A stretch of 64,000 nt of DNA, taken from positions 24,525-88,524 of the forward strand of contig JBHLMP010000008.1 in the NCBI GenBank assembly GCA_048938025.1, in the 5' to 3' direction. The position numbers were made by a program, and so were the translations under genes. The notes beneath the pieces were generated by a model. It did not search any database and was not told the origin of the DNA. It saw nothing but the letters and a program-made list of their open reading frames with translations. Below, piece after piece: positions 15,250 to 50,348 of the stretch; positions within the stretch are counted from its first letter, which is position 1; the number at the start of each line of letters is the position of its first letter. Source of the DNA: Promethearchaeota archaeon (lineage in GTDB: Archaea; Asgardarchaeota; Lokiarchaeia; Sigyniarchaeales; SOKP01).

Positions 15250-17202
15250 TTAATAAATTATACTCCAAAAAAATTGCGGAATTAATGAGATAAGGATTGT
15301 AAACAATAGAATCCACTCTATTATAGGTTGTATAAGGATACAATAGAGAAAAAATGTGAATAAGGGAGCAATTAAACCGAATGTCCAACATCGATTCTGG
15401 TTTGTCCCATGAAAAAACATGACGTATAGGCTAAATAATAAAATAGAAAGAATAAATCCACCAAAAGCGATTCCAGCAGAGGAACCATGGATAAGTCTCA
15501 TTGGTCCCGCTCTATCTAGACTAAAGATTCCCACAAAGATATATCCCACATTTCCCACTATACCAAAGATTAATCCAGATCTTGAAATTCCGTACCCAAT
15601 GCGAAATTTTCTTAAAGGGATTGAGTTTTGAGGGAGTATCTGTTTGAATAGTACTATATTAAGTAATAATGTGGTAATACCACCTAAAACACATGCGGAA
15701 TTAAAAAGGTACGGAATTGGTGTAAATTGTATTGAACCTAAGCAACTAATTTCATGAGTAATAATACTAAAATTCGAAGTACCATAAAGATAGGCAACAA
15801 AAATACTGCTCATTAACATTAATAAATAAGCACAAAGTCCTCCTATTAGGACAAGACAAATTACCTTTTGAGAGGCATAATTACCTTCGCTTGTAATGGT
15901 TAAGGATTCAAATCTTTTGTCTTCTAAGAAATACTGATAATTATTTTTTCTTTCTTTTATTTTTTTATTCGGCTTTGTGTCAATTCTAGTAAATAAATCC
16001 CATCCTTCTTGAATTAAATAAATTTCCTTACTAATATAACCCGAAAAATAGTTAAAAAGGATGAAATCTTCAAATACTCCTAATTCTTTATTATACTTCC
16101 AGCTTGGAATATATCCTCTGGGAGAAAATCCAGCTTTTTGAAAGATCTTTTGATGTTCAGGAATATACCCTGATAGAAATACTTCACAATATCGTACATT
16201 AAGTTCATTTTTACATTTCATCAACTCTTGTACAAACACATATAAATCTTCCAAACTATTAACTTGATATTCTATTTTCTCAAAATTTTGGACATTAGGA
16301 GTATATAAGAACTTAAAAAAAGAAGAAGCTCCTTCAAAAGAGAATCGAATTGTTTCATATCCAAATTTATTTTTTTTGGAGTTTTTGATAAGTCTGTTCT
16401 TCAGATTAATTACTTTTTTAAAATTTAATTCTATGCTAGGATTTACAATTTTAAAATCTCCTAACTCATATCGCTTATCAGAATATAAAAAACAGCTTTG
16501 CACTTCAGATAAGATCTGAGGTATTTCTTTACTTCTATAAAGCCGTAAAACTCTTTCATCATATAAAATTTGCATCACATCAGATTCTACTTTACCTAAG
16601 AAAACATCTTTATTGGGATAGAACCCAATTGGAGCAATTCCACACACCCTCATGGAGTATTGTGATTTTGCATGAGCTGTACGATTTTCTACATACCAAA
16701 TGTAAATTTCATTTTTGTATTTATGGCACATTCCTATCATGGAGCCAATCATCGCTTTAGTTATATCAATATGACCTTGATACTGTTTTCTTAACATAAA
16801 GCCTCGAATATATCCTCTCTTATTCTCAAAATCTAAAACAAAAGTAATACATCCTGCTACGTTAAATGAAGGATCTTGGTAGATAATCCATTGAATAGTT
16901 GGATCTTGTATCATTTTTTTCACTTCATCCTCATCTTCCATCTCTTTATAAGGATAGGTACCATCATACAATTCCTTGTAGATTTCTACGATTTCTGCTG
17001 CATCTTCAGGACAGGCAAGTCTTAAGATGGGATTAATTTTATGAGTATGGTTTCTATCAGAAATTTTAAAATCAAGATACATCCCATTATGGATATTGGG
17101 ATCAATTATATCCTCAAATGGTCTCAAAAACTCATCAGTAGAGACGCAAAATAATTCATTTAACGAGATTCTAGGAATCGATACTGTTTCTTCGGAAAGC
17201 AT
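15250..17202 (-). CDS. GNAT-domain protein fused to a DUF998-like membrane domain
   Basis: LRLACPEDA, QYQG GNAT motifs; C-terminal TMs with ISCLG and H..SA motif. Confidence 0.65.
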   Translation of the reverse strand: MLSEETVSIPRISLNELFCVSTDEFLRPFEDIIDPNIHNGMYLDFKISDRNHTHKINPILRLACPEDAAEIVEIYKELYDGTYPYKEMEDEDEVKKMIQDPTIQWIIYQDPSFNVAGCITFVLDFENKRGYIRGFMLRKQYQGHIDITKAMIGSMIGMCHKYKNEIYIWYVENRTAHAKSQYSMRVCGIAPIGFYPNKDVFLGKVESDVMQILYDERVLRLYRSKEIPQILSEVQSCFLYSDKRYELGDFKIVNPSIELNFKKVINLKNRLIKNSKKNKFGYETIRFSFEGASSFFKFLYTPNVQNFEKIEYQVNSLEDLYVFVQELMKCKNELNVRYCEVFLSGYIPEHQKIFQKAGFSPRGYIPSWKYNKELGVFEDFILFNYFSGYISKEIYLIQEGWDLFTRIDTKPNKKIKERKNNYQYFLEDKRFESLTITSEGNYASQKVICLVLIGGLCAYLLMLMSSIFVAYLYGTSNFSIITHEISCLGSIQFTPIPYLFNSACVLGGITTLLLNIVLFKQILPQNSIPLRKFRIGYGISRSGLIFGIVGNVGYIFVGIFSLDRAGPMRLIHGSSAGIAFGGFILSILLFSLYVMFFHGTNQNRCWTFGLIAPLFTFFLYCILIQPIIEWILLFTILISLIPQFFWSIIY

Positions 17203-17258
17203 TTTAAAATGATTTTTTTTGTATGTATTTGAAAATTAAGATCTACCTCATGTTAGTA

Positions 17259-17273
17259 TATTTAAATAAAAAA
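17259..17273 (-). promoter_or_regulatory. Island promoter motif variant TTTTTTATTTAAATA
   Basis: 14/15 match, about 56 bp upstream of the start at 17202. Confidence 0.55.
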
Positions 17274-17350
17274 GAGGAATATCAAGGTTTCATTTTTCCT
17301 TTATATAGAGTAAGAACTGAGGTCTGTTTGTACAAAAAGGTAAATTTCTT

Positions 17351-18229
17351 TTAATTAACGGTATTATACTCTTTATTATTTTTACTTTCTCGTATAATGA
17401 ATTTTCCATTATAGAAGTAAGAGGTAAGGCGGTTATTAAAAACCCAATCTTTTCCAAACTCATCCCTAAAATCCCGAAACAAATCATTGGTAAGAAATTT
17501 ACAATTTTCTCTTCTTGCAACTTCTAAAATCCATTCATCTGCTTTCGTGCCCGCCGGAGATTGGTTTAAGATTCCTTTCTCCTCGAGAGCATCATAGTGA
17601 TCATAAGAGTTCAAATGATGTCTCATACTTGCATCGGCAATCATATAGGGTTCATAACCAAGTTCTACTACTGCATTATAGACTTTTAAAATATTTTCGA
17701 TTTTTAGCTTTTCATTTTCATCTTTATCCAAATTCAGAATATTAGTAATATCTACCACCAACTTCTTTTTTATTTCTTTAGAACATTGACTTTGATTTTG
17801 ATTTTCGAAATGATCTTTCTGGATTAGCTGTGAGACCTCTAAAATTTCCTTGATATTATCTAAATTTTCAGGACTTTTTTTCTCTTTTAGATTTTTATAA
17901 ATGATCATCAGCCTTTTTGCGATAATTTTTAAGAGTTCCTCTCTTTCTTTTATTTGCTCTACTAAACTTCCATCTCTTTCAGATTGCAAAGATTCATTAC
18001 TGAAATTACTATTAATCGATTCCTTGACATAGAAGGGAAAAAATTCGAGGAGTTCTTCCATAATGCGAATTCGATTTCTAAAAATATGATTGCGTAAATC
18101 TTTTGGGGATATTATTTTCAAGGAGACTTGATTTATTTTCTGTTTTAAAATATTCAACTCTTTCTCGCTAAAGAAGATTTTTTCCAATAATGCATTAAAA
18201 ATATGTTCTTGCGATTCTGGTACACTCAT
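17351..18229 (-). CDS. NYN/PIN-fold (Zc3h12a-like) ribonuclease with N-terminal helical region
   Basis: LVVDITNI, ADAS, ADEWIL, TNDLFRD motifs; likely start MSVPES at 18229. Confidence 0.8.
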   Translation of the reverse strand: MSVPESQEHIFNALLEKIFFSEKELNILKQKINQVSLKIISPKDLRNHIFRNRIRIMEELLEFFPFYVKESINSNFSNESLQSERDGSLVEQIKEREELLKIIAKRLMIIYKNLKEKKSPENLDNIKEILEVSQLIQKDHFENQNQSQCSKEIKKKLVVDITNILNLDKDENEKLKIENILKVYNAVVELGYEPYMIADASMRHHLNSYDHYDALEEKGILNQSPAGTKADEWILEVARRENCKFLTNDLFRDFRDEFGKDWVFNNRLTSYFYNGKFIIRESKNNKEYNTVN

Positions 18230-18242
18230 AAGTTTGCCCACT

Positions 18243-21200
18243 TTATGCTTTATTAATATATAATTGAATTTTTTCAAAAAATTGAGAATAATAGGTATAC
18301 ATTTCGATTACTAATTCCTTGAGATTCTCTTCGTCAAAATTAATGATTTGGTATTGTTCTAAATAATCATGTAATTCCTCTTGAGTAAAGAGAATATCGG
18401 GATTTTTGGATATTTCTGTAATAAACTTCTCTAAATCTTTGGTAGTAACTATGTAATCAGCGTTGTAGAAATGCTTATAAACACTCATAAGGAATTTTTT
18501 AATTAAATTATGCAGTATTTTTAATGCATTTTGATACTCCTTATGATTGATAAAAGAGTGTGCCTTGAAAATTGTCCAATAAAGATCACTAAATTCGCGA
18601 GCAAAAGCCTCTTTTAGATTCCTTTTTTTAATAATATAGGTTCGATCTTGGTTTTGTAGCATCTTCTTATAATCGAACGGTTCTTGAGACTCCTTTTCTA
18701 AAACATCTACAGAGATTTCCAGCTCAGCTTTTATTTGGTAGTAATCCTCAATTGCTTTATCAAGCTGATCCCCTACAGAATAAGAGGTTCTTATTGCTTC
18801 TGAACCACCTGCTTTTTTAGGATGATTCTCAACTAAATACCTGTGCCTCACTAAGATCCCAAACAATTGTTCCACTAACTTAACTATCTCTGGATTGGTA
18901 TATTGTCGTTTTTTTGCCTTGGGAGCAATATATTGTTTTAGCTCCTCCTTGATCTTTTTCTTATATAAATTGCCTATTTGGTCAACGGTTTTTAAATGCT
19001 CTAAAAATTGTTGAATTTCATCAAGATATAAGACATAGCTCCCTAAATCCTTTTCAAATATCGTTTGTTTTGTTTGTTGTAATATCTGTTGTTCTGTCGA
19101 TTTTAAGTCATATCCTTGCCCTTTCATAAAGTGAATGATTTCTTCTGTCTTTAATAAATTTATAACTTTTAGATTAGACCATGTTAACTTTGCCGGAAAA
19201 GGCTGATAAATGTCACTTCGCTTAACAATTACTTCATCATCTTTTAAATTCATTAAATAATCGATTTGATAGGTATTGTTACGGGAAGAAGTATAATACC
19301 CTCTTCCTACTAATTCCTGTAAATTCATTTGATTCTTTAATACCCCAATATCCTTGGAGTCTGTAGCTCTAAAGGTAAGATGATTAGTTAAACATTTGAA
19401 TAAGTTAGGATGAAGGTAGTGGATTTGGTTAGCAGAAAAGATTAAGCCAAACTTATTTTGAAGTAGAGGATCTAAAAAGGTATTGATTATTCCATAGTTT
19501 ATTTTTTGCTCAATATGATTATTATCAAAAAAGAGGTCGATGTGCGGAATAACTAATATTTTTGGTATAAACTCACGCGAATTCTTTATGTAATGTAAAA
19601 ATTTAGAAACAATGATAAATGTAAAGAAGAGCTGCTTTCTAAAGTCATTAGAGATAGACAAATCAAGAATTATGGTTTTCTCATTAGTTATGAACTTAAG
19701 GGGGGAAATAGTACAATTAGAACCTTTATGAGAAGAGAAGAAAAGGGTAAGATCTTCCTGAGAAAAATCACTAAATAAGCTGGTTAAAGTATAGTTCATT
19801 GGTCTTTTCTCCCATTCTCTCTGATTAAGGAGTTCTAAGCTTAAAGAGGGAAGGTCCATGTCTGGGTGTTTCTGAATATTAGTACGAAATATGTCTACGG
19901 TTCTTTCATCTTTCTTAAACGCTAAGGCATAGGAATCATACATATATTCCAGATACTGTATATTATTTGGATCATAAGGGATATCTGATTGAAGGGGATC
20001 TAAGGTAAATGCGCTTCCTAGCTTAAAATATAAGAGATCGTTCTCAAATCGTGAATCTTTAAAGTAAGCAATTAATTTTGACCAAGTACCATTAAAATCA
20101 AAAATTATGGAAGGGACATTAACTTTCACCAACTCTGAGACAATTTTCATACATGCTAGGTCTCTACTTTTTAGTGTACCATTGGTAATGAGAAGATTTT
20201 TTAATTGATCTAATAGTAATCCAAAAGGTATTTCTTCTTCAAGTACCTCAGTATTAACAGTATGCCCAATCGTGATAAAATTCGGTAGATGAAGGGGGGT
20301 GTTAAACTCGGCAGCAATTCGAGTCTCAACTCCTTTTTTAAGAATATCCACTATTCTTGTAAGGTTTATCAAGATTTTCCCTTGAAATAGGATATAATTT
20401 AAATGAGTGCCATTTAGTCGAGTAAATTTATTTTTAATAGTCTCACATAAATATCCCGAAACAAGTTTTCGTTTCTGAAGCTCGACCAGTTTATAATTTA
20501 AGAAATTCATGTGGAAAGCATTTTTCACTAGGTTTATGTCGGATCGTAATTTTTCTTCCAGTTTCATTATATGCTCTACTTTAACTGAATTAACTAACTT
20601 GTTGCTTGAGGTTGATAGAAGTAAGATGGTTCTCCACATTCCAGAGCATCTATTTAACCAATTGAGTTCATCTTGAGTGGTCTTTAAGCCATGCTCTTCT
20701 TTATATAATAACTTATCAATTACATCTTCTTTTAAGTATTTGAAACCTTCTTTATAGAATCTATAGAATGAGATAGGAGTATTTATGGCAGTAAATGTAA
20801 AGGGAATCTTTTGGCTCATTAATGCTTGGTAAAATTTATCTGCACTTCCATAGGCAGGGGGAGAGGCATAATGAAGGTTAAGCAGTTTGCGATTTATAAG
20901 AATTCTATTATCAACAAGAAGAAAAATACTATCAGGGATTTTTCTAAAACAAAAAAAATCAATATCCTTAAAGGGATAAATAAGACTTATCTCTTCATTA
21001 TTCAGTAGTTGTTTTTTCGATACTTGAAATAAGAGTTCCCTCCACCATAGAATACAAATTATCCCAATTAGAGACGTATTGAAAAACAGGACAAATCCAA
21101 AACCAAAATTATTGACTAATAAAAGATAATCACAAGTTACCATTAAAAGACTACAAAATAAGAGTTTAGCAATTAAAAAGGATCGATGATTATTAAAAAA

Positions 21201-22043
21201 ATAAAAGTCTGTATCAATCTCTGATTTATAAGTTCCATTATCCCTAATAAAGTGAGTTCTCAATGCGTTGAGTAATCGTGTTCCTGAAAGAAGTGCGATC
21301 CTATAATGATGAAAGTTACATATAAAATCTGATTTTAATTTGGATGTGATTTGATCTAACTTGTATTTTAAAAGCTCCCTTTTACTCTCTCGCAAAATAC
21401 CTTTTATCATATAATAAACACTAAAATAAATGAACGTCTCAATCGATTCTTGAGAACCGACTGCAATATCTCTTGATATTGAGCGCTTAATATAGTATGG
21501 ATTTTGAACTACCTGATAAGAATAAGGAGTTAGACTACTCCCCTCACTTAGTGATCGAATGAAAGTATCGATTGCCGCATGAACATTTTCCGGTAAAACT
21601 TCGATTTTGAATAATCGTAAACCGATATGCGTTAAATCTTGTTTATTCGAAAGATATACTATCGTTGGATTGTCTTTTTCTTGCCAAAAGATCATTTTTT
21701 CGAACGGATTAAAGGACCTAAACTTACCGAATGTATAGGAAAAAAGGGAACTTAGACTAAAAAATTGGTCTTGAAATGTTATGAAAAATAGGATAAGTAT
21801 TATTATTCCTACTCCCGTACTTATCGTAAGATTGGATGTAGCCATATAAATAGAAGAAATAATGAATACTAATAAGGAGACAATAAAAATCGATTTCAGG
21901 ATCGCAGTACTATTTTTAATATCTTTAAAAGAGGGATTTACTTTCCATATGAAATAATTTGCATCATCAGAACCCTCCACTTCTTCAGATTTAGATTTAC
22001 TGTCTTTTGCTTTTAATTTAGAATCGTGAGATTTTGATAACAC
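18243..22043 (-). CDS. Membrane-bound HerA/VirB4-fold protein with degenerate Walker motifs
   Basis: Two TM hairpins, then IGH...LLITNGTLKSRD...IIFDFNG, IILDLS, LVIPHID, GLIFSANQ, L.DDEVIV; likely GTG start at 22043 after GAGGTGA. Confidence 0.7.
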   Translation of the reverse strand: MLSKSHDSKLKAKDSKSKSEEVEGSDDANYFIWKVNPSFKDIKNSTAILKSIFIVSLLVFIISSIYMATSNLTISTGVGIIILILFFITFQDQFFSLSSLFSYTFGKFRSFNPFEKMIFWQEKDNPTIVYLSNKQDLTHIGLRLFKIEVLPENVHAAIDTFIRSLSEGSSLTPYSYQVVQNPYYIKRSISRDIAVGSQESIETFIYFSVYYMIKGILRESKRELLKYKLDQITSKLKSDFICNFHHYRIALLSGTRLLNALRTHFIRDNGTYKSEIDTDFYFFNNHRSFLIAKLLFCSLLMVTCDYLLLVNNFGFGFVLFFNTSLIGIICILWWRELLFQVSKKQLLNNEEISLIYPFKDIDFFCFRKIPDSIFLLVDNRILINRKLLNLHYASPPAYGSADKFYQALMSQKIPFTFTAINTPISFYRFYKEGFKYLKEDVIDKLLYKEEHGLKTTQDELNWLNRCSGMWRTILLLSTSSNKLVNSVKVEHIMKLEEKLRSDINLVKNAFHMNFLNYKLVELQKRKLVSGYLCETIKNKFTRLNGTHLNYILFQGKILINLTRIVDILKKGVETRIAAEFNTPLHLPNFITIGHTVNTEVLEEEIPFGLLLDQLKNLLITNGTLKSRDLACMKIVSELVKVNVPSIIFDFNGTWSKLIAYFKDSRFENDLLYFKLGSAFTLDPLQSDIPYDPNNIQYLEYMYDSYALAFKKDERTVDIFRTNIQKHPDMDLPSLSLELLNQREWEKRPMNYTLTSLFSDFSQEDLTLFFSSHKGSNCTISPLKFITNEKTIILDLSISNDFRKQLFFTFIIVSKFLHYIKNSREFIPKILVIPHIDLFFDNNHIEQKINYGIINTFLDPLLQNKFGLIFSANQIHYLHPNLFKCLTNHLTFRATDSKDIGVLKNQMNLQELVGRGYYTSSRNNTYQIDYLMNLKDDEVIVKRSDIYQPFPAKLTWSNLKVINLLKTEEIIHFMKGQGYDLKSTEQQILQQTKQTIFEKDLGSYVLYLDEIQQFLEHLKTVDQIGNLYKKKIKEELKQYIAPKAKKRQYTNPEIVKLVEQLFGILVRHRYLVENHPKKAGGSEAIRTSYSVGDQLDKAIEDYYQIKAELEISVDVLEKESQEPFDYKKMLQNQDRTYIIKKRNLKEAFAREFSDLYWTIFKAHSFINHKEYQNALKILHNLIKKFLMSVYKHFYNADYIVTTKDLEKFITEISKNPDILFTQEELHDYLEQYQIINFDEENLKELVIEMYTYYSQFFEKIQLYINKA

Positions 22044-22044
22044 C

Positions 22045-22899
22045 CTACTCACCTCTAAAGTTTTGCCAATATAGAATGAGAAAAAAAGCAGCCACTCCAA
22101 ATAATAGCAAAATGGTTAACCCGTAAGTATCAACAGTAAAGGGAAATAGCATCATTTCTATTAATACAATAAACCCAAAACAAAAAGCAACTAAAAAAAG
22201 ACCAAGAATAAAATAGCCTAAAATACTCTTTAACGAGAGTTGATAGTTGATATTGTCTTTTAATGCTCCTTGGATCACGATTTTATTTTTTCCATTCTCT
22301 TCAAGCCCTTTTTTAATCTTTTTCAAATATATTGCTTGTTCAAATGTTTTTGAGTTAAAATTCTGATTCAAGGTCTCCCGAAGGGCAATTTCTTTTTCCT
22401 TGACTTTATGGAGTATGAGGGGTTTTAATTTATTATCATTATTTCTCTTTTGTCTACCCCTTGGAGATAAGAAGGAAAATAAATTAACATTCGTCGTTTT
22501 GATAATATTATCTTCCTTTAACTGTTCATGGAGATTGGGAATGTCTAACTTTCTTAATTCATAATAAAGTAAGAAAATTTTTTTGATATAATTATAGGGG
22601 ACATCACCTCTGCTTCTAAGAAATATGATCTCATATTTTTTCAAGTTATCAATTATCTCCTCCTTAAAGATATGTAATTTAAGGTTGGACTCGAAAACAT
22701 CATTAATTAGCCTTATATATTCAAATATCTTTTCTTCTTTTTCCTTATTTCGAGGTCGCAGTCCCAGTTTGATACCAAACTCATCTATCTTATTACTTAT
22801 TAAAATGAATCCAGAGACGGCTAACTTTCTATAATTTTGAGTCTCTTTACAGACTTGAATTAAATACTTTAATTTTGAATCTATTATGGTTTCATTCAT
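22045..22899 (-). CDS. Hypothetical protein with two C-terminal TM helices
   Basis: ORF overlaps upstream gene stop; C-terminal hydrophobic hairpin. Confidence 0.7.
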   Translation of the reverse strand: MNETIIDSKLKYLIQVCKETQNYRKLAVSGFILISNKIDEFGIKLGLRPRNKEKEEKIFEYIRLINDVFESNLKLHIFKEEIIDNLKKYEIIFLRSRGDVPYNYIKKIFLLYYELRKLDIPNLHEQLKEDNIIKTTNVNLFSFLSPRGRQKRNNDNKLKPLILHKVKEKEIALRETLNQNFNSKTFEQAIYLKKIKKGLEENGKNKIVIQGALKDNINYQLSLKSILGYFILGLFLVAFCFGFIVLIEMMLFPFTVDTYGLTILLLFGVAAFFLILYWQNFRGE

Positions 22900-25946: not shown

Positions 25947-26043
25947 TCCTTCTATCTTAATCCCTAGCTAATTTTTTACATCTATTTTTTTCTTTTATAA
26001 AGTATCATTTTATTTGTTTGGTAAAAATTTATAGTGATCCAAC

Positions 26044-26355: not shown

Positions 26356-26370
26356 CAAAGGTGACGTATT

Positions 26371-29243: not shown

Positions 29244-29257
29244 TTTTTCTTTAAAAA
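29244..29257 (+). promoter_or_regulatory. Island promoter motif variant TTTTTCTTTAAAAA
   Basis: 23 bp upstream of ATG 29281. Confidence 0.55.
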
Positions 29258-29280
29258 CACTCTGAATAATGTAAATTGAA

Positions 29281-38159: not shown

Positions 38160-38169
38160 TAAAGAAATG

Positions 38170-42327: not shown

Positions 42328-42634
42328 ACACCTTTAATTCTGTAAATTCAGAGATTAATTCTTTTATTGGTTGACATCCATCATATTTAGTACAGCTAAA
42401 GCATGGATGGTCTGACCAGAAATAGGCAGGCATATTAGTACGTTCAATGATGAGAATAGGATAATTGTTTAAAGGACAAAGTAATGCCGAATTGCTTATT
42501 GATCCTCTTTTAGGTAATGGATAAGAGGTCCTACATACTTCACATTTAGCAAATCGTTTATAATTCCTTGTTTTAAAGATAGTAATTGAACATTGACATT
42601 TCGGACAGGTACCGATTTCACTTAATTTTCTCAT
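42317..42634 (-). CDS. Topoisomerase-IA-type zinc-ribbon repeat protein
   Basis: IGTCPKC...KRFAKCEVC..SYPLP.RG...CP...CFSC. Confidence 0.7.
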   Translation of the reverse strand: MRKLSEIGTCPKCQCSITIFKTRNYKRFAKCEVCRTSYPLPKRGSISNSALLCPLNNYPILIIERTNMPAYFWSDHPCFSCTKYDGCQPIKELISEFTELKVYGY

Positions 42635-42747: not shown

Positions 42748-42975
42748 ATGATATTTGATTATTTTGATGGGATTGAAGAAGCAATCCAGTTTCTATTGGC
42801 TTTAGGCTCCGCTATTGGTTTGCTAGGTCTTATCGTCGGGATTCTTGGATGGATGTTTTTAGGGCAATTTAACCGTCAAAAAATGATTGGAGTGCTGGTT
42901 GCATCTGTTATCCTTTTAGCAGTATGCGGAGTTTATACTGGAATCGAATATTTTCATTTAGATATTAATGTATAA
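42748..42975 (+). CDS. Small two-helix membrane protein, VirB2/CedA1 pilin-like
   Basis: 75 aa; two Gly-rich hydrophobic helices with a short basic loop (NRQK). Confidence 0.5.
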   Translation: MIFDYFDGIEEAIQFLLALGSAIGLLGLIVGILGWMFLGQFNRQKMIGVLVASVILLAVCGVYTGIEYFHLDINV

Positions 42976-42978
42976 ATA

Positions 42979-43356
42979 TTAATTATAGCCGTCATCTGTT
43001 GATCCCGATCGACCGATTTCCACTCCGAGAAATTCAAGAACGGTACCTGTTAGCCAACACCCTATATATAGGAGAATAATGCCTACAATAAGTTTATTAG
43101 TCCATCCATAGCCTCTGGTAAAAATACCCATCACTCCTAAAAATGTATATACAGCTCCAACCATGAGACATATAGCCCCTATTGTATCAAAGATAAGGGA
43201 GAGACTCCTTCCTACTTTATATCTCCACGTAACAGCAAACAACGGAAAGAAAAGTAACACAAACACTAAAATTCCAAAAAAGATATACAAAGTCCCCTTC
43301 TTGTTATTTCGATATGTTCCTATAATTACATATTCATTCTTTTTCAAAAAATTCAC
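42979..43356 (-). CDS. Three-TM membrane protein
   Basis: Three hydrophobic segments; exact motif upstream. Confidence 0.65.
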   Translation of the reverse strand: MNFLKKNEYVIIGTYRNNKKGTLYIFFGILVFVLLFFPLFAVTWRYKVGRSLSLIFDTIGAICLMVGAVYTFLGVMGIFTRGYGWTNKLIVGIILLYIGCWLTGTVLEFLGVEIGRSGSTDDGYN

Positions 43357-43412: not shown

Positions 43413-43595
43413 GAAGAGCTCAGGTAAGCTACTTTTTATTTATAAAGAAATGCTATGATAATAGTAATAACTAAGTTCAATATCTCAATTGGTGAAAAAT
43501 GTATTTGGGTCTTTCTTATTTTAATTCAAAATGAAAATTATTTTAAAGTCAGCTTGATTATTTTATTAATTATAAATAGTGTTTTTTGCTTTTTC

Positions 43596-43790
43596 ATGTC
43601 AAAATACTATTGCCCCCGCTGTAAATCCAGAGATATAATAGAATATGAGACATTTATTGAATGTCCTCAATGCAGGTTAGAGTTTGAGAAAGAATTCTTT
43701 GGAGTTGTGGATGATGAGAATATGTTAGCACGACAGGAGGTAATGGGTTTTATGGATTCTTTTGACGAGAATGATGAGGATGAGTTTTAG
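43596..43790 (+). CDS. Small zinc-ribbon protein with acidic tail
   Basis: MSKYYCPRC...ECPQC; the longer start at 43455 is uncertain. Confidence 0.65.
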   Translation: MSKYYCPRCKSRDIIEYETFIECPQCRLEFEKEFFGVVDDENMLARQEVMGFMDSFDENDEDEF

Positions 43791-44053: not shown

Positions 44054-45148
44054 ATGGGAGTTAAATTACAAGAGATCATTGTACGAAAACACGTAGCCTT
44101 ACAAGATCTAGAAGGGAAAATTATCGCTGTGGATGCTCCTAATATCATTATGGGCTTGTTCAATTTTGCAAGAAAGAATCCTGATGGTAAACATGCGGGA
44201 TTAATTTTAGATCGCACCCAAAGACCAATTTCCCATTTATATGGATTGATATATCGCATTAATTTTTTTTACTCTAAAAGGATCTTTCCTATTTTTTGTT
44301 TTGATGGAAGGGATTCTGAGCTGAAAAAACTCATAACTAAGGATCAGTTAAATGATTTTCGCTTCACTCAAAGTTGGTATAAGCAAGCATTAGAATGTGA
44401 TAATAAGGAATTGGCAAGACAAATTGCATTAAGCAAGGAATATATGTGGCAAAATATCATTTTGGAATCTAAACAGTTGCTAAGTGCATTAGGAGTTCCA
44501 TATATTGAGTCTCCCGCCTCTGCTGAATCGCAATGTGCCTATTTAGTAAAGGAGAGGATAGCTGATTACTCCAATTCTCAAGATTTTGACTCCTTGTTGT
44601 TCGGATGTTCCTTTTTGCTTCAAAATTTGTCGAAATCATTACGACGCAAAATACAAGGAAGATGGAAATATCAGAAAATCATCCCTCAAAAAATTAACTT
44701 ACAAAAAAATTTGGATAACTTAGAAATTACAATTTTTCAATTGGTAGATATTGGTATACTGATTGGAACTGATTATTTTCCAGGGATTCATGGTCTTGGT
44801 CCAAAAAAAGCTTTAACTCTAATAAGAAAATACCAACAAATTGAACAGGTAATAACTAATGAGAGACAAAATTATGATTTCAGCAAATTAACTCCTGAGA
44901 TCATTAAAAAAGTAAGGAAAATCTTTCTTTTCCCTATCGTGAATGAGAACATTGAAGAATTTTTATGGAATCCCCCAGATAAGTCAAATGTAATTTCTCA
45001 ATTGTGTGAGGACCATTATTTAAACCGAGAACGAGTCGTGAACAATCTGGAAAAGTTTGAAAAAAATTATGAGAAATGTAGAAATTTTTTTATCTATGAG
45101 AGAAAGCAACCCAAATCAATTCAATTGACTTTAGATCAGACTAGTTAA
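44054..45148 (+). CDS. FEN1/XPG-family 5' nuclease paralog
   Basis: MGV, IAVDA, FDG, AESQ, SQDFD, GTDY..GI.GLGPK, C-terminal QLTLDQ. Confidence 0.9.
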   Translation: MGVKLQEIIVRKHVALQDLEGKIIAVDAPNIIMGLFNFARKNPDGKHAGLILDRTQRPISHLYGLIYRINFFYSKRIFPIFCFDGRDSELKKLITKDQLNDFRFTQSWYKQALECDNKELARQIALSKEYMWQNIILESKQLLSALGVPYIESPASAESQCAYLVKERIADYSNSQDFDSLLFGCSFLLQNLSKSLRRKIQGRWKYQKIIPQKINLQKNLDNLEITIFQLVDIGILIGTDYFPGIHGLGPKKALTLIRKYQQIEQVITNERQNYDFSKLTPEIIKKVRKIFLFPIVNENIEEFLWNPPDKSNVISQLCEDHYLNRERVVNNLEKFEKNYEKCRNFFIYERKQPKSIQLTLDQTS

Positions 45149-45221: not shown

Positions 45222-45827
45222 ATGACAGAGACACTAAAGGAAGAAGTAATAGAGACACCTAAAGTGCTGAAATCTCCACAACGCATCCAAAAAATCGATA
45301 AAAAGCTTAGAATACGTCTTTTAAACTGTTTATTTCGCTATATATCGTTTATTGATGGGAATGAAAATCTCAGGAGGATATCAGATATAGAGTGTAAAGT
45401 GCTCTCATCGAGGACTGAGATACCTGTTTATAAAGTTCGTAAGATCCTTGATAAGTTCTTAGTTGATCTAACATATCTTAAAGAGTTTTTGCGTAGTGGG
45501 TTGCTATCCTACTCTATTTCGGATCAGGCTCGAAAAGTAAGAATTTATCTTCACAAAGTTCATCGACTTGCCCCTGTGTTTAATTATAAGAGGGCAAGAG
45601 AAAATGCAAGAAGGCTAAAATTGAAATTAGATCAGCTTTTATTTTGGCCTCAGGTTATGACTCAAGTTGCAGTTGTTATCTTTATAACCGATTTCTTGGA
45701 TAAACGATGCGATGATAATAAGCTACTGCAGACGAATTTGAGGGCGTTGTGTGATTGCTCTGCGTATGCGTTTCATAGAACTCGAAATAAAATAGGGTTA
45801 CAACAAATACTTTCAAAAAGCCAGTAA
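45222..45827 (+). CDS. Truncated TFB-like cyclin-fold protein (no Zn ribbon)
   Basis: P...VAVVIFI...LQTNLRALCDCSAYAFHRTRNKI resembles the TFB C-terminal repeat and HTH. Confidence 0.5.
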   Translation: MTETLKEEVIETPKVLKSPQRIQKIDKKLRIRLLNCLFRYISFIDGNENLRRISDIECKVLSSRTEIPVYKVRKILDKFLVDLTYLKEFLRSGLLSYSISDQARKVRIYLHKVHRLAPVFNYKRARENARRLKLKLDQLLFWPQVMTQVAVVIFITDFLDKRCDDNKLLQTNLRALCDCSAYAFHRTRNKIGLQQILSKSQ

Positions 45828-45911: not shown

Positions 45912-46832
45912 ATGAGTTCTAATATCGAAGATATTTATCAAACACTTCTCAATGCCGGTATTACTGAGGATGAAATTGAAAGGCAAGTAAATGAGAGATA
46001 CAACGAATTTCAGGGATTTATGTCCAAGCAGGCAGTTCTGTTTTTAATTGCAAAAGAAAATGGTTTAGATATTACCTCTTCTAGTAGTGGTAAAATCAAT
46101 CACTATGAAATAGACTATAATGATTTTGCTAGTCCAATTTCTAAAATTACGGAGACTATGAGTAATGTTGTCATCACAGGAAGGATACTTAAAATTTTTG
46201 GCACTAGAAATTTTGTTCGAAAAGATGGATCACCAGGAACAATCGGATCATTTATTATAGGTGATGAGTCAGGAACAGTAAAAATTGTTCTATGGGACGA
46301 TCAAGCGGAAATAATGGAAAATGATTATTTCCAAGCTGGTGAAATCGTTCAAGTTATTGGAGGGTATTCTAAAGTAGGACTAGATGATGAGATTGAGGTT
46401 CATTTAAGTAAGGCAGGAAAGATTATACTATCTCCCAAGGATGTAAATCTCTCACAAATTCCAAAATTAGACTCATTTAAAGATTTAAAATTACAAGGAT
46501 CTGTATCATTAAAAGAAGATCCAAGACTATCAATAAAGGACCTATATTGTAAAGAAGGGTTTATTAAATCTATAACAGGAATAATACAAATTGAAGAATT
46601 TAAAGAAATAATGAAAAAGAATGAAGATAAGACCTTTCTTTTAAAATTAATTCTAAGTGATGATACATCATCTATAAGAGTTTTAGTATGGGGCATAAAT
46701 GCTGTTGAATCTCTCAAAATTTTAAATGATGGTATTGGTGTTAAATTATCAAATGTAATGATAAAAGAAAATCCTTATAATAATGAAAAAGAATTAGTTT
46801 ATACTAAGAATTCAAGAATGAAAATTCTTTAA
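45912..46832 (+). CDS. RPA/SSB with two OB folds
   Basis: AVLFLIAKENG N-domain; FVRKDGS.G, GDESGTVKIVLW, SDDTSSIRVLVW; motif variant at 45848-45865. Confidence 0.9.
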   Translation: MSSNIEDIYQTLLNAGITEDEIERQVNERYNEFQGFMSKQAVLFLIAKENGLDITSSSSGKINHYEIDYNDFASPISKITETMSNVVITGRILKIFGTRNFVRKDGSPGTIGSFIIGDESGTVKIVLWDDQAEIMENDYFQAGEIVQVIGGYSKVGLDDEIEVHLSKAGKIILSPKDVNLSQIPKLDSFKDLKLQGSVSLKEDPRLSIKDLYCKEGFIKSITGIIQIEEFKEIMKKNEDKTFLLKLILSDDTSSIRVLVWGINAVESLKILNDGIGVKLSNVMIKENPYNNEKELVYTKNSRMKIL

Positions 46833-46871: not shown

Positions 46872-46918
46872 TTTCTCATTTAACTATCTCCTAAAATTAT
46901 ATTAAAAGTAAAGATAAG

Positions 46919-47467
46919 ATGATAAGTCATATACCAAAAGTGTTTTATGAAAATAAGATAACTGAAGTGTTGGACGAGATAAGATATAATTATGGTAAGT
47001 TGACCCGAAAGGGATACATTTACGGACTAATAACCATCGACCAAGACGCAAAGATTATTGCCATTGATTCCCGATTTGATAGGAAGTTGAATTATTGGGA
47101 TTTAAGCTCTATTGGTGCGGCATTATACGGTGTAGCACGGCAAGGGCAGGATTTTTTTGAGACTGAAGAGTTAGAACGGGCATCCTTAATTTATCGAGAT
47201 ATGCGTCTTTTTGTTAAATCTATAGGGAAAGTAGAGCTTCAGAAAAAGGGAAAGCGAGATATTTTAGTAGTTATACTGACCGATAATGAAGTCAACTTAG
47301 GAGTAATAATCTTGCAAATGAGCAATTTTGCTTTTAAGATTAGGCAAGAGATTGAAAAAAATGAAAAAATGAAAGAGACCTTGCGAATGTCTGAAGAAGA
47401 GATTAAAGCGCATATCAATAAGCTCAAGAAAGAGATTTTTAAGGATAAAATTGGTACTATTTCCTAA
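46919..47467 (+). CDS. Roadblock/MglB-like protein
   Basis: LSSIGAALYGVA...ILVVILTDNEVNLGVI roadblock pattern; upstream of an MglA-like GTPase. Confidence 0.75.
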   Translation: MISHIPKVFYENKITEVLDEIRYNYGKLTRKGYIYGLITIDQDAKIIAIDSRFDRKLNYWDLSSIGAALYGVARQGQDFFETEELERASLIYRDMRLFVKSIGKVELQKKGKRDILVVILTDNEVNLGVIILQMSNFAFKIRQEIEKNEKMKETLRMSEEEIKAHINKLKKEIFKDKIGTIS

Positions 47468-47487
47468 TTTATTCCACAGGTGATTGT

Positions 47488-48162
47488 ATGGAAATTCCAA
47501 GGGAATTCAATGATAGGAAGGTTGAAATAGGAGATGAAAAGGGAGATGAATTAGAGATTAGCGAAGATTTTGACTTCAATGATAATGAAAATATGATTCA
47601 GTTTAAAATTGTGTACTGGGGTCCAGGTGAAAGTGGTAAAACTACAAATTTCTTTCGATTAAGGGAAAAATTTGAGCTATTGAAACTGACAAGAGGATAT
47701 TCCATTGACACCACAGAGGGAAGAACTCTATGGGAAGATTCACTCTACTTATTATTTAAGTTTTCTCTTAATGACATCAAGTATAATATTATTACACACG
47801 TAGTTACGTGTACAGGACAAGAACGCTTCTTATCGACACGAGAGTATGTATTAGACGGTGCTGATGGGATAATTTTTGTTGGAGATTCTTCCCCTGAAAA
47901 AATCGAACAAAATAAAAGAAGTTTTAGAGAGTTAATTAGCTTTGCAAAATCAAAAGATATACCCTATTTAGTCCAACTGAATAAAAGAGACCTAAATAGT
48001 GCTATTCCAATAGAAAAATTTAAAGTTCACTTAGGATTGCCCTTACAAGAAACATATCCGGATGGTACATTTGTTGTATATCCAACAGTGGCATTGCAAG
48101 GAGAGAATGTTATTAATTGCTTTAAGGATCTCATCCTTCAGATTATATTTAATTGTTTTTAG
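47488..48162 (+). CDS. MglA-family small GTPase
   Basis: FKIVYWGPGESGKTTN, GRTL, TGQERF, GADGIIFV.DS, QLNKRD. Confidence 0.88.
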   Translation: MEIPREFNDRKVEIGDEKGDELEISEDFDFNDNENMIQFKIVYWGPGESGKTTNFFRLREKFELLKLTRGYSIDTTEGRTLWEDSLYLLFKFSLNDIKYNIITHVVTCTGQERFLSTREYVLDGADGIIFVGDSSPEKIEQNKRSFRELISFAKSKDIPYLVQLNKRDLNSAIPIEKFKVHLGLPLQETYPDGTFVVYPTVALQGENVINCFKDLILQIIFNCF

Positions 48163-48211
48163 TAAGCAAACTTCAATAAGTAAATTCTAGAAATTATTAT
48201 ATGGTGATCAA

Positions 48212-49345
48212 ATGGATTCAGGAGTAGACTTTATTACACCAGAATTTTTAAACATACTTTTCTTTCAACAAAAAAATGTAGTGATATTCCCGTATGTCGA
48301 TCTAAAACATTTACATTCATTAGAGCTTTTCACAGTTGGGCACAATGTAATTGATTTAGAATCCACCGCCTTGCATAATTTAAAGGAAATTCTTGAATAT
48401 GAAAAAGATAATTCCTACTCACAAAACCCGACCTTATTTTTTATCTATAATGTTTCGAAAGATGAGATTTCAGAGCTTTTGGAACTAAAGGGAATACGGT
48501 GTATCATAAATACTAGCAATAATGTTCAAGATCTTGCTAATGGAAGTGATTTTCTATTCTATAACAGGAAAAATAACCAATTTCTGAATTATGATGATAA
48601 TCCTGATTTAGAATTTGAGAACCTTTTAATTACGACCTCTGAAAATGAGATTATCTTACAGGATAAAATTGTGAAAATCAAAACTGCTGCCACACGAATT
48701 TTTACTGAATTAAACCAAGATGATAAATTAACTAATCTTCCAGAGATCCTTGCTGATTATGATAAACGATACTGGAACAAAATCCTAATGTTTACTCATA
48801 AATATTATGATATAAAAATTCCTGATATAAAATCTCTAAAATTTGAGCAACGATCAAGACCAAGGACTAAAGGAGTACTAAAGGATTATTCCTATGAATA
48901 TGAAATCATTATTTCCCAAAATAAAAATATAGCAAAAGAGTTCATCCAACTTCTTCATGAGTTCCGAAGCAAAAAGGTTAATCCATCTAATTTAGAGTTA
49001 GAAGAACTTTTTAATCCTCAGAAGTTATACAATTATTTGCGAAATCACCATTGGAAAGAGCGTATTGATAAGGAGTTCTTAGAAGAGTGGGTAACAATGG
49101 ACATTTCTAAGTATACCTTAGCTGAGAATGATTTAAATGATTTTCAAGTCATATTTCAGAAATTAGATTTACCAAGTGAGATTATTATAAATCTATTTGG
49201 AGTTGAAAAAAATAATAACGTGAAAGAAGTTGAGCCTAAAATCCAAATTCTTCCTGAAATTCCTTCGATTAAAGATTTTTATAGCTTTAAGAAATGGATT
49301 TTGAGAAAAGTAGAAGATATTGAGAAATTATTATTTTTTAGTTAG
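48212..49345 (+). CDS. Hypothetical protein
   Basis: 377-aa ORF with GGTGA SD-like sequence. Confidence 0.7.
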   Translation: MDSGVDFITPEFLNILFFQQKNVVIFPYVDLKHLHSLELFTVGHNVIDLESTALHNLKEILEYEKDNSYSQNPTLFFIYNVSKDEISELLELKGIRCIINTSNNVQDLANGSDFLFYNRKNNQFLNYDDNPDLEFENLLITTSENEIILQDKIVKIKTAATRIFTELNQDDKLTNLPEILADYDKRYWNKILMFTHKYYDIKIPDIKSLKFEQRSRPRTKGVLKDYSYEYEIIISQNKNIAKEFIQLLHEFRSKKVNPSNLELEELFNPQKLYNYLRNHHWKERIDKEFLEEWVTMDISKYTLAENDLNDFQVIFQKLDLPSEIIINLFGVEKNNNVKEVEPKIQILPEIPSIKDFYSFKKWILRKVEDIEKLLFFS

Positions 49346-49490
49346 TTTTGATGCTATATATCATATTTTTGTCTAAATAAGATATAGATTCTTAACTATC
49401 TATAATTTTATCTCTGAATTAATAGAGCATACTGCCTTGTGAAAACCTTATCTATTCAGTTTGTTGCCTTACTCGAAATTTAAATGTTTT

Positions 49491-50348
49491 TCAGGCGACA
49501 AAGTCATCTATTTTAATTTCTATTTGCTCTTTAAAGTGTTTCTGATCATCCAGCATATACCCATGCTTTTGTATCTTTATTCCCTTCTTCCATTTTAACG
49601 CATTATAAGGTATATAATAACCATAATTATCCTTGACTTGCGATATAATATCCCTTGTAGGAATTCTAAGAGATTTTAGTATTTCTTTTTTCTTTCTCTC
49701 GCTTAATTTTTTGTTACAAATATCAGTAATATATTGATTTATTTCTTTAATGCACGACCATTCTACGTTAACATCCCTAAACCGAGCTAATTTATACTTT
49801 TTGCCGGTAAACACCAATTCTAAGGAAGGTATAGATCCACAGATGGCACTTCGTTGTTTTTTATAACGCACATAACGGATCATCCCATTGCCATCCACTT
49901 TATATTGAAAGTATTTAGTGAAATGTAAGGGATACACAGGAGTTAGTAAACCTTCTTTGGCCATGTTCATGTAATATACACGCCCTTTATACATTTTTAG
50001 CAATTGCTCCTCTTCTATTGATACAATTACCCCATTTTGATTTTTAGGTAGTTTATGATAGGTAATACCGTTTAGAATCCATAGAATATATATTCCCTTT
50101 CGACTATAATCTAAGCTACGTTCTTTAAGCTCTTCGGGACTTATTTTAGAATTCTGAAATTCAATTACAAATTTCTTGCCATCAGTCAACTCTCCATAAA
50201 GGTCAGCTTTGCGATTGCCAATCATCCGTTCCACTTCGATTTTTGTTATATTATTGTCGTTAGGAAGATTATCCTGAAAATATAACTTCATTCTCATATG
50301 TTCAATTGATTCGGATTTCTTTTCTTCGGATTGTTTCGATAATTCCAA
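49491..50348 (-). CDS. CoiA-like PD-(D/E)xK nuclease
   Basis: ES.EH..MK, E......RKADL, VIEFQNSKIS..EL.ERS..Y...GI..LWIL. Confidence 0.78.
   Translation of the reverse strand: MELSKQSEEKKSESIEHMRMKLYFQDNLPNDNNITKIEVERMIGNRKADLYGELTDGKKFVIEFQNSKISPEELKERSLDYSRKGIYILWILNGITYHKLPKNQNGVIVSIEEEQLLKMYKGRVYYMNMAKEGLLTPVYPLHFTKYFQYKVDGNGMIRYVRYKKQRSAICGSIPSLELVFTGKKYKLARFRDVNVEWSCIKEINQYITDICNKKLSERKKKEILKSLRIPTRDIISQVKDNYGYYIPYNALKWKKGIKIQKHGYMLDDQKHFKEQIEIKIDDFVA

Follow-up and report, generated by a model that had tools for sequence, protein, structure and literature searches.

The stretch of DNA considered here (the window, 64,000 nucleotides) comes from a Promethearchaeota archaeon and corresponds to positions 24525-88524 of contig C68 in its assembly, G000, which comprises 3.52 Mb in 88 contigs at about 30% GC. 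At window positions 11834-49345 lies a conserved gene island of about 38 kb, in which about 36 genes, arranged in alternating operons, bring together a second set of recombination and repair enzymes, a divergent paralog of transcription factor B (TFB), a distinctive upstream promoter element, and membrane or surface proteins, which account for roughly half of the gene content and are conserved with the island. In a first-pass annotation of the sequence, a block at 15250-50348 had been delimited and read as a competence- or mating-like program. That the genes belong to one conserved block was upheld by synteny, whereas these limits were not: three additional genes on the left (11834-15229) are part of the block in relatives, and the CoiA-like nuclease on the right, which had been counted as a member, has no ortholog in the island stretches of the related genomes G003, G005, G016 and G024. 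The CoiA-type protein (CoiA_nuc PF06054, 53 bits against a cut-off of 20.3) thus adjoins the island.

Conservation and distribution of the island

The block is collinear, and not scattered, in the relatives G003, G005 and G016, at 34-82% amino-acid identity. In G024 it is found as two halves that complement one another, on separate contigs and with a copy of the TFB in each. In G006, a complete genome, the block is divided among at least three places, with no island RadA recovered, so that its modules appear to be separable. Below, f1 denotes the family to which G000 belongs and f2 its sister family. In a survey of island markers in 400 genomes of the phylum, the gene for the VirB4-like protein described below turned up in 102 of 134 f1 genomes besides G000, including 46 of the 53 from its genus, with matches at 23-27% identity in 7 of 14 f2 genomes and few elsewhere. 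The SWIM-bearing part of the Hel308-like helicase was found in 91 of the 134 f1 and 9 of the 14 f2 genomes; in other families the matches, to proteins of about 750 amino acids, were for the most part weak or partial, the exceptions being G097 and full-length matches of 27-30% identity in G031, G045 and G309. A looser version is seen in f2, where the complete genomes G038 and G171 each have 8-12 homologs of island genes inside 60 kb. Two further complete genomes, G023 and G032, are without island markers, and in G032 there is one RadA, one FEN1 and no VirB4-like match.

A promoter element shared across the island

As the first-pass annotation had pointed out, upstream regions in the block share one motif, which consists of TTTTTTC followed directly by TTTAAATA. 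Its 13-mer core, TTTTCTTTAAATA, occurs 22 times in the 3.52-Mb genome, with eight copies in the island, and nine times in the window, where 0.07 copies are expected from shuffled sequence. Degenerate copies are present elsewhere in the island, and the same element made up the largest families in an independent repeat search. For seven of the eight exact island copies a start codon lies 21-73 nucleotides downstream, and the TATA start lies about 29 or about 49-57 nucleotides before start codons, as expected of real promoters. A position weight matrix was trained on the island sites; counts made with it inside this island are circular, and the stretches of the relatives serve as the independent test. 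In these, all sites scoring at least 15 fell inside islands (11/11 in G005, 10/10 in G016, 8/8 in G024 and 6/6 in G003), and the flanks had none. Chance clustering of the island genes is ruled out by the synteny together with these motif statistics.

To place the element within the promoter, 240 TTTAWATA sites upstream of open reading frames (ORFs) outside the island can be compared, in which positions -5 to -2 are enriched in A (0.46-0.52) and C is found at -1 in 6%. Since generic sites are A-rich and seldom carry C at -1, the T6-C element sits at the position of the B recognition element (BRE) and differs from the generic sequence there. Good intergenic sites outside the island are few, and they precede a paralog of the island's toroid protein, an LVIVD/Ig-domain protein, a solute-binding protein and uncharacterized proteins. 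The f1 matrix gave no sites in the f2 clusters. In G171 a variant, TTYGATTTTAWAWA, has 5 of its 20 genomic copies within 24 kb, and in G038 all three genomic copies of another variant, TTTTTGYTTTTATAA, lie within 14.5 kb; the latter pattern was derived from these same sites, and its count is informative only as zero copies elsewhere in the genome. It is highly likely that the island is a real, conserved and co-regulated unit.

Two details of element placement stand apart. Tandem elements at 43867 and 44014 (+) precede FEN1, with ORFs of at most 31 amino acids between them, and may reflect a small RNA or an alternative 5' untranslated region. The ninth 13-mer of the window, at 53637-53649 (-), is not in the island; it sits where a GNAT gene of the opposite strand begins, with no minus-strand gene downstream.

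A divergent TFB paralog

Two TFB paralogs had been proposed for the block, and one of them, at 35799-37028, was confirmed. Its ORF has 475 codons, and the true start is placed at M67, giving 409 amino acids, because the orthologs begin at an equivalent Met or Leu. In profile-profile comparison (hhalign), a profile of 12 orthologs matched a profile of 8 of the 9 canonical TFBs of the genome at 97.3% and E 2.5e-11, over 258 columns (query 20-287 against TFB 13-294) that take in the Zn ribbon and both cyclin repeats. The ribbon cysteines C24, C27, C41 and C44 are invariant in the 12 orthologs and aligned to the canonical ribbon. The structural model has a predicted local distance difference test (pLDDT) score of 61 overall and about 80 in the core, and its top 40 Foldseek matches are TFIIB, TFB or Brf chains. 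Against curated cut-offs the protein falls short (PF00382, 15.7 vs 23.6 bits; NF001658, 19.1 vs 384 bits), and an hmmsearch of the ortholog profile against PDB gave no TFB match; its identity, like that of the VirB4-like protein, was detected by fold comparison, and for the TFB additionally by the profile-profile comparison. Judged from these alignments and the model, this is a bona fide divergent TFB paralog, for which binding of the complex of TATA-binding protein and DNA, reading of the BRE and recruitment of RNA polymerase would be predicted.

The paralog has an extra C-terminal region of about 120 amino acids, and in its aligned BRE-recognition helix S-T-V-Q-x-Q-V-K stands in place of the canonical E-V-T-L-R-S-R-Y-K; the G038 paralog has still another recognition-helix sequence. 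In five of five genomes inspected, the TFB gene is without the island motif, and in the window an A-rich/TATA sequence lies about 60 nucleotides upstream of it. Among 24 other genomes of the genus, TFB and the VirB4-like gene were found together in 17, neither in three, the VirB4-like gene alone in four and the TFB alone in none. The second proposed paralog, a 201-aa protein, was rejected, its hhalign probability being 0.4% with the canonical TFBs and 0.25% with the confirmed paralog, and no further candidate came up. Besides the island paralog, the genome has nine canonical two-cyclin TFB genes, on C55, C14, C84, C69, C7, C51, C49, C50 and C74.

A second set of recombination and repair enzymes

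The annotation of RadA, Hel308-SWIM, Hef/FANCM, FEN1-like and RPA proteins in the block is backed in each case by Pfam and/or PDB matches. The RadA paralog scores 237 bits against Rad51 PF08423 (cut-off 22) with an N-terminal HhH (HHH_5) in addition, the motifs GPFKSGKT (Walker A) and LIVVDS (Walker B) are visible in its sequence, and more than 120 database proteins match it at 75% identity or above. In the Hel308-like protein, Pfam recognizes DEAD, Helicase_C and archaeal domain 4, the top PDB match is of the Ski2-type/Hel308 class (E 2.7e-84), and the SWIM signature CxC...CxH is kept together with motifs I and II in six of six orthologs from two families. The Hef/FANCM-type helicase matches PDB 1wp9 (E 3.6e-106) and FANCM (E 1.5e-65) and has the inserted helical bundle PF21210 (E 1.5e-14); an ERCC4 nuclease domain was not found in it, and its residues 540-721 have no Pfam family. 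The FEN1 paralog matches archaeal FEN1 in PDB at E 2.9e-55, and no match to the RPA-like paralog was recovered from the G016 island. The remaining member of this group, annotated as RadB-like, is a P-loop ATPase (Walker A GESGTGKT) whose identity as RadB is weak, with TIGR02237 at E 1.6e-6 and 28 bits against a cut-off of 172, and KaiC PF06745 at E 5.4e-5.

The RadA, Hel308, Hef/FANCM, FEN1 and RPA genes are second copies and not the housekeeping ones, as is evident from the copies elsewhere in the genome and from the RadA and FEN1 trees. The genome has three strong Rad51-family genes, of which the island copy ranks third and is the most divergent, and other copies of Hef, FEN1, RPA and Hel308 are found on other contigs at 32-42% identity (Hel308 on C41 at 32%, RPA on C55 at 33%, Hef on C25 and C80). 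In a maximum-likelihood tree of 13 FEN1 sequences, one clade (100/100) unites the island copies from five f1 genomes and the second copies present in G038 and G171, and it stands apart from a housekeeping clade (100/100) that includes the sole FEN1 of G032. The second FEN1 of G038 lies inside its cluster, and that of G171 lies at 4.43 Mb, outside the stretch fetched. In a FastTree phylogeny of 21 RadA sequences, the island clade (0.99) is sister to the housekeeping clade (0.98), and the island RadA is 58-63% identical to the f2 cluster copies, compared with about 40% to the other copies of its own genome. RadA and FEN1 of the island were thus co-inherited as clades of their own across two families, and, since these clades span both, the duplications predate the split of f1 and f2. 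Housekeeping-type RadA is itself present twice in f1 (about 400 and about 335 amino acids; C72 and C66 in G000, also G005 and G006) and once in f2, an f1-specific duplication.

The NYN protein of the window is a separate gene (17351-18277), and in G005 and G024 an NYN domain makes up one longer protein (545 and 535 amino acids; L035:17624-19258 and L031:17340-18944) together with the ortholog of the 377-aa rightmost island protein. Just upstream of Hel308-SWIM, a small gene at 26038-26358, which has no ATG, GTG or TTG near its 5' end, encodes a CPxC...PH..HGxPLHAL motif and an invariant-like C-terminus, ...KxWxNP[YF]; by tblastn it was recovered at 54-63% identity in five f1 islands and at 36-41% in the G038 and G171 clusters.

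Envelope, surface and switch proteins

The largest membrane protein, of 1285 amino acids, had been annotated as having a VirB4/HerA fold. It has no family match, and a search of the full-length profile against PDB (hmmsearch) gave nothing relevant. An AlphaFold2 model of residues 400-1285, built with 24 orthologs (pLDDT 77.7), has as its top Foldseek match in PDB the TrwK/VirB4 protein of R388 type IV secretion (E 4e-11 over 600-680 columns), followed by HerA translocases (HerA E 1e-9) and HerA-type defence ATPases, and an ESM Atlas language-model search gave 0.91 to DUF87/HerA_C clusters. The fold is therefore upheld, but the nucleotide-binding motifs are degenerate. At the P-loop site the sequence is LLI[TV]NGxxxxR, with no conserved Lys or Ser/Thr, and the Walker B strand, IIDLS, has no acidic residue (Glu) after the Asp, in 24 of 24 orthologs. 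A second VirB4-like lineage, at 37-43% identity, is found outside the island (G012:C59, G233:C14 and G015:C30; loci L049-L057), with few island genes nearby, yet with the island promoter element upstream.

Transmembrane (TM) segments and hydrophobic anchors were assigned throughout by a Kyte-Doolittle-type hydropathy heuristic. The membrane-anchored HhH protein of the annotation was confirmed: this 688-aa protein has HHH_5 at residues 95-149 (E 3.2e-12) and two TM segments near residues 530-570, and an ESM Atlas search with it was uninformative. For the 650-aa protein, which has about seven hydrophobic segments, Pfam, NCBIfam and PHROG gave no family match. The label 'pilin-like' could not be sustained for the 75-aa 2-TM protein (68-72% identity in relatives), for which a PDB profile search gave neither a pilin nor any other significant match, and the same holds for the 'topo-type' ribbon: the 105-aa Zn-ribbon protein, in which eight Cys positions are unchanged throughout the f1 and f2 orthologs, has no significant match in a PDB profile search. 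The proposed M50 protease has the HExxH motif (HEVSH) in a 6-TM protein, and its M50 score is below the cut-off (18.5 vs 27.2 bits, E 0.0014); its gene stays beside the TFB paralog even in the split G006 locus. Two putative anchored surface proteins were recognized, of 777 and 337 amino acids. The former is the toroid protein, with an N-terminal hydrophobic segment and a C-terminal anchor; its paralog on C51 is 61% identical and is also preceded by the island motif. Of the MglAB pair of the annotation, the MglA-like GTPase matches PDB MglA 3t12 at E 4.1e-24, and its 182-aa partner has a weak PDB Roadblock/LC7 profile match (E 0.0084) and no Pfam match. Nothing else in the island is as well conserved as this pair, which is 78-82% identical in f1 and 37-51% identical in the f2 clusters.

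Remaining genes and flanks

The remaining features are collected in Table 1. The 388-aa protein has a weak PP-loop/HUP hint (Arginosuc_synth N-terminal domain, E 3.5e-4, below the Pfam cut-off; PDB argininosuccinate synthase, E 0.03). Of three small genes after Hel308-SWIM, the 71-aa gene occurs as 2-3 repeats in relatives, and the double Zn ribbon of the 85-aa protein is below the Pfam cut-off. No Rfam family was found in the window. The flanks consist of housekeeping genes: the PolD small subunit, Orc1/Cdc6, CarS, archease and RtcB on the left, and CutA, radical-SAM proteins, a Pelota-like protein and Elf1 on the right. The PolD small subunit and Orc1/Cdc6 lie close together (2594-6405), a typical archaeal replication-origin neighbourhood, which is about 5 kb from the island in G000 and not so in relatives. 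Also left of the island, at 10200-10925 (-), a 241-aa protein has a C-terminal winged helix-turn-helix (wHTH) domain of TrmB type; homologs in G005 and G024 occupy the island's right end, and it may be a candidate island-associated regulator.

Table 1. Features of the island and its right border (window coordinates; motif gives the position and strand of the promoter element).
Feature	Position	Strand	Evidence and remarks	Motif
380-aa protein, leftmost island gene	11834..12976	-	No Pfam family; syntenic, 46-50% identity in G003, G005, G016, G024, G006; 23% in G038 cluster	13083(-)
388-aa conserved protein	13163..14329	+	67-74% identity in relatives' islands	Variant, 13099(+)
270-aa protein	14417..15229	+	No Pfam family; syntenic in G005 (74%), G024 and G016 (41-45%)	
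650-aa protein, soluble N-terminal domain of about 400 aa, then C-terminal multi-TM part	15250..17202	-		17277(-)
NYN-domain (Zc3h12a-like) nuclease	17351..18277	-	Pfam PF11977, E 2.3e-13	
1285-aa VirB4/HerA-fold membrane protein, four N-terminal TM segments	18243..22100	-	Fold model, hydropathy heuristic	
284-aa protein, C-terminal TM segments	22045..22899	-	Syntenic, 41-49% identity; no family above cut-off	
250-aa 4-TM protein	22896..23648	-	Hydropathy; syntenic, 32-44% identity	
688-aa HhH and 2-TM protein, first gene of membrane operon	23653..25719	-		25765(-)
Small Cys/His-rich gene, about 100 aa, unannotated	26038..26358	+	Stop-to-stop frame	Variant, 25986(+)
Hel308/Ski2-type helicase paralog with SWIM insert	26371..28899	+	Pfam, PDB	
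Three small genes (89 aa; 71 aa; 85-aa Zn-ribbon and TM)	28974..29881	+		29239(+)
DUF1922 Zn-ribbon protein	29987..30511	-	Pfam PF09082, E 4.5e-10; syntenic	
Hef/FANCM-type helicase paralog	30511..32676	-	Pfam, PDB	
206-aa protein	32669..33289	-	No family; syntenic, 41-50% identity	
777-aa prenyltransferase-type alpha/alpha toroid protein	33328..35661	-	Pfam PF00432, E 4.5e-15	35728(-)
Divergent TFB/TFIIB paralog, 409 aa	35799..37028	-	hhalign, Foldseek	None
6-TM HExxH protein, divergent from TFB gene	37404..38159	+		37364(+)
127-aa TM protein	38140..38523	+	Hydropathy; syntenic	
RecA-superfamily P-loop ATPase, weakly RadB/KaiC-like	38543..39253	+	TIGR02237, KaiC	
125-aa Cys-rich protein	39560..39937	+	No family; paralog on C38	39520(+)
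RadA/Rad51-family paralog, extra C-terminal HhH (DUF4332-like)	40049..41272	+	Pfam	39971(+)
337-aa protein, N-terminal hydrophobic segment and C-terminal anchor	41314..42327	-	No family; syntenic, 39-40%	
105-aa Cys-rich Zn-ribbon protein	42317..42634	-		42700(-)
75-aa 2-TM protein (+) and 125-aa 4-TM protein (-)	42748..43356	+ and -		42705(+), 43416(-)
111-aa Zn-ribbon protein	43455..43790	+	Two CxxC pairs in sequence; syntenic	
FEN1 paralog	44054..45148	+	Pfam XPG_N, XPG_I	43867(+), 44014(+)
201-aa protein, not TFB-like	45222..45827	+	hhalign null	45154(+)
RPA-like OB-fold paralog	45912..46832	+	Pfam OB folds	
Roadblock-like 182-aa protein and MglA-like small GTPase	46919..48162	+	PDB	46853(+)
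377-aa protein, rightmost island gene	48212..49345	+	No family; 53-57% identity in relatives	
CoiA-type nuclease-domain protein, outside island	49491..50348	-	Pfam; paralog on C20	
Exact 13-mer cores	25747-25759, 35710-35722, 43398-43410	-		
Exact 13-mer cores	37370-37382, 39526-39538, 39977-39989, 43873-43885, 46859-46871	+		

Proposed mechanism

In the mechanism that we propose, the divergent TFB would be transcribed from an ordinary-looking promoter, back-to-back with the HExxH membrane gene, and would replace the housekeeping TFB at the island promoters, where the T6-C element occupies the BRE position upstream of TTTAAATA. Once the TFB is on, three modules would be co-expressed. One is a faster-evolving recombination module of RadA, the RadB/KaiC-like ATPase, Hel308-SWIM, Hef/FANCM, FEN1, the RPA-like protein and the NYN nuclease; another is an envelope module with the VirB4/HerA-fold protein, lacking ATPase motifs, as a scaffold, the HhH protein, the 2- and 4-TM proteins and the anchored surface proteins; and the last is the MglA/Roadblock switch. 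Such an inducible programme would couple an envelope structure for DNA handling or cell contact to dedicated homologous recombination, and its outcome, on the analogy of TFB3 with Ced/Ups in Sulfolobales, may be the exchange or uptake of DNA between cells. That the island is driven by its own TFB we consider somewhat probable, with the TFB reading the motif and co-inducing the genes being the causal step that we infer, and the envelope module and the recombination kit would then act on the same DNA. Intercellular DNA exchange and recombination, an analogy-based proposal, is the leading candidate for the function, yet possible rather than probable. As a whole, an accessory regulon with its own TFB that couples envelope DNA handling to recombination is put forward tentatively, at a confidence that falls somewhat short of even. 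Of the competence- or mating-like program proposed by the first-pass annotation, then, the own TFB, the promoter and the second recombination kit have stood, and the DNA-transfer function stays a proposal.

A number of observations weigh against this proposal. Of the parts that had been taken for transfer machinery, the only one with fold evidence is the VirB4-like protein, and since its Walker residues are gone in all orthologs it could not be a conventional translocation motor; from its sequence, it is very probably not an active motor. A VirB6/CedA-like channel and a VirB2-like pilin are not demonstrated among the island proteins, and the 650-aa protein has orthologs of 425 amino acids in G016 and G024 that are without a multi-TM part. 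The HhH domain of the 688-aa protein is probably cytoplasmic, as no signal peptide precedes it. Taken together, the dead ATPase, the unproven channel and pilin and the cytoplasmic HhH count against a simple import machine. In addition, CoiA is not conserved with the island as far as its gene content in relatives goes, the modules can, on the G006 assembly, be separated, and the TFB paralog is not found in the four genus genomes that carry the VirB4-like gene without it, which are fragmented assemblies. The motif could also be the site of a separate regulator, such as the wHTH protein at 10200-10925.

Alternative explanations

Several of the same observations would fit a regulon for repair only, in which DNA damage or replication stress leads the TFB to induce back-up fork and crosslink repair, no intercellular DNA is involved, and the products of the membrane genes signal stress or remodel the envelope, with, for instance, the HExxH protein releasing or activating a factor. 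The enzymes are the classical fork-restart and recombination set, the VirB4-like protein is without ATPase motifs, the HhH domain is probably cytoplasmic, the HExxH membrane gene always adjoins the TFB gene, and in Sulfolobales, according to the available part of the source, TFB3 activates damage-responsive genes (PMC6101594). We nevertheless regard this as unlikely, given that about half of the island consists of conserved membrane and surface proteins, including the VirB4-fold protein and two anchored proteins, that where the motif does occur beyond the island, at a few sites, genes for surface proteins follow, and that housekeeping copies of every repair enzyme are present already. A programme of the cell cycle or of differentiation, with segregation or ploidy control, MglA/Roadblock polarity and surface remodelling in a periodic or developmental wave, has a precedent in the division genes linked to TFB2 in Sulfolobus, as far as the accessible part of that report goes (bioRxiv 10.64898/2026.09.06.749720), and would suit both the strong conservation of the MglA/Roadblock pair (78-82%) and a HerA/FtsK-superfamily fold with four N-terminal TM segments. 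The island, however, is dispensable, as it is without markers in G023 and G032 and without its RadA in G006, and ESCRT, FtsZ, SMC and ParA were not detected in it by Pfam scans, so that this explanation is decidedly improbable. Still less credit can be given to a role in antiviral defence, with HerA-like and Hel308/HamB-like helicases plus nucleases as its basis, which we consider highly improbable: many Foldseek matches are to SIR2-HerA, DUF4297-HerA, TdpAB and DndH, the Hel308-like protein matches PADLOC HamB models (E 1.2e-46), and NYN and CoiA-type nucleases are present, but PADLOC gave no family for six of ten proteins scanned, the VirB4-like protein and the partners from its operon among them, the PADLOC helicase matches cover generic superfamily 2 cores with the HamA partner absent, RadA, RPA, FEN1, MglA and TFB are not defence components, and the HerA-like protein has no ATPase motifs.

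The island might also be a domesticated or still-mobile element, of conjugative or viral derivation, with a remnant of a type IV secretion system (T4SS). VirB4 is the top fold match, the island has its own initiation factor and promoter, its distribution is accessory, TFB-paralog or VirB4-like genes are present in 2-3 copies in some assemblies, and the G000 flanks share nothing with those of relatives. A 12-kb contig of another family (G097:C266, family f16) carries a VirB4-like gene (40%) and Hel308-SWIM (63%), by horizontal transfer or a binning error. Against this, the assemblies with duplicate copies have an estimated contamination of 6-9%, the same chromosomal flanks recur beside the island in G005, G016, G006 and G024, and the deep monophyletic island clades of RadA and FEN1 mirror the family split. 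The annotation had seen no integrase, relaxase, replicase or capsid gene, and this was borne out, as these families and terminase were not detected in Pfam scans of the window ORFs of at least 70 amino acids or in PHROGs, which gave no family for nine of ten proteins scanned (ten proteins without family, out of the about 36 island genes). Nor are the hallmarks of a provirus or plasmid with att sites present: there is no tRNA in the window, the flanking direct repeats are limited to chance-like pairs of at most 35 nucleotides, the GC content equals that of the flanks, and no relatives were found in IMG/VR viral contigs (VirB4-like and TFB profiles) or in PLSDB plasmids (VirB4-like protein). A mobile element is thus about as improbable as the cell-cycle programme, and the locus is best described as an old chromosomal island, which may have a conjugative element as its ancestor, an origin for which the available part of the source argues in the case of Ced and Ted (PMC9905601). 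A stronger version of the DNA-exchange proposal, a dedicated mating-and-recombination programme of Lokiarchaeia-type Asgard archaea, would have the private TFB turn on contact and envelope proteins, the MglA switch and the second recombination set, with this set acting only on DNA exchanged between cells; we consider it quite unlikely, slightly less so than the cell-cycle and mobile-element explanations and more so than repair alone.

Relation to known systems

An accessory regulon that couples envelope DNA handling to recombination would belong with the TFB-paralog regulons and the T4SS-derived DNA-handling systems of archaea, as a novel version. Like TFB3 with Ced/Ups in Sulfolobales, the island ties a TFB paralog to a dedicated gene set. 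Unlike TFB3, which we take to be truncated, the island TFB is full length, with a Zn ribbon and two cyclin folds, and, unlike the TFB3-Ced case, the island promoters bear a specific element at the BRE position. TFB paralogs that drive dedicated programmes are described, in the parts of these sources available, for TFB3 (PMC6101594) and TFB2 (bioRxiv 10.64898/2026.09.06.749720). In the latter, the accessible part of which concerns Sulfolobus acidocaldarius, the likeness lies in a TFIIB paralog at the promoters of one functional set (bioRxiv 10.64898/2026.09.06.749720), and the difference in that the proposed targets here serve recombination and the envelope and not ESCRT-based division, and that the island is accessory. 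Ced and Ted are described, in the portion of the source available, as a VirB4-like ATPase, a VirB6-like protein of 6-7 TM segments and a 2-TM pilin, and Ted loci also carry HerA and Rad50 (PMC9905601). The island resembles them in having a VirB4/HerA-fold membrane protein beside 2-TM and polytopic membrane proteins and in the link to homologous recombination, again going by that portion (PMC9905601). It differs in forming one island of about 38 kb with a full paralogous recombination kit, in a VirB4-like protein without Walker A/B, and in that a CedA/VirB6 or CedA1/VirB2 homolog is not demonstrated; from plasmid T4SSs it differs in that no sequence similarity to the VirB4-like protein was found in PLSDB.

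In streptococci, the sigma factor ComX and its promoter box co-induce membrane DNA-handling proteins with RecA, SsbB, CoiA and DprA, and in the island, similarly, a dedicated initiation factor and a specific promoter box would co-induce both kinds of module. The factor here is an archaeal TFB in place of a sigma factor, the genes lie together at one locus, CoiA falls outside the conserved island, and ComEC, ComEA and type IV pilus homologs were not detected in Pfam scans. The meiosis-specific set of eukaryotes includes Dmc1, Mer3/HFM1, FANCM, Exo1/GEN1 and MEIOB-type RPA paralogs, and in the island RadA/Rad51, Ski2/Hel308, Hef/FANCM, XPG/FEN1 and an OB-fold binder are likewise duplicated beside housekeeping copies; Spo11, Hop2-Mnd1 and cohesin homologs were not seen in the island by Pfam scans. 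The duplications described here are independent of the meiotic ones. In the available part of a recent phylogeny, eukaryotic Rad51 and DMC1 are placed outside all sampled Asgard RadA paralogs (PMC12722695). Clades of Asgard RadA paralogs are noted there without their gene neighbourhoods, the strings 'synten' and 'neighbor' being absent from the accessible part of the paper (PMC12722695). No description of the island, its TFB or its promoter element was found in the full-text literature, supplementary files not being covered.

Significance

Dedicated TFB-paralog regulons are known in few archaea, and none was found reported for Asgard archaea. In this island, an initiation factor of its own goes together with a core-promoter element, likewise private, that occupies the BRE position, a combination defined at the level of sequence, and the lineage-specific TFB and promoter variants in two families make its specificity directly testable in vitro. 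A paralogous recombination kit and a T4SS-type scaffold appear as a unit in the archaeal lineage nearest to eukaryotes, and the island thereby bears on whether specialised, regulated recombination or DNA exchange preceded meiosis.

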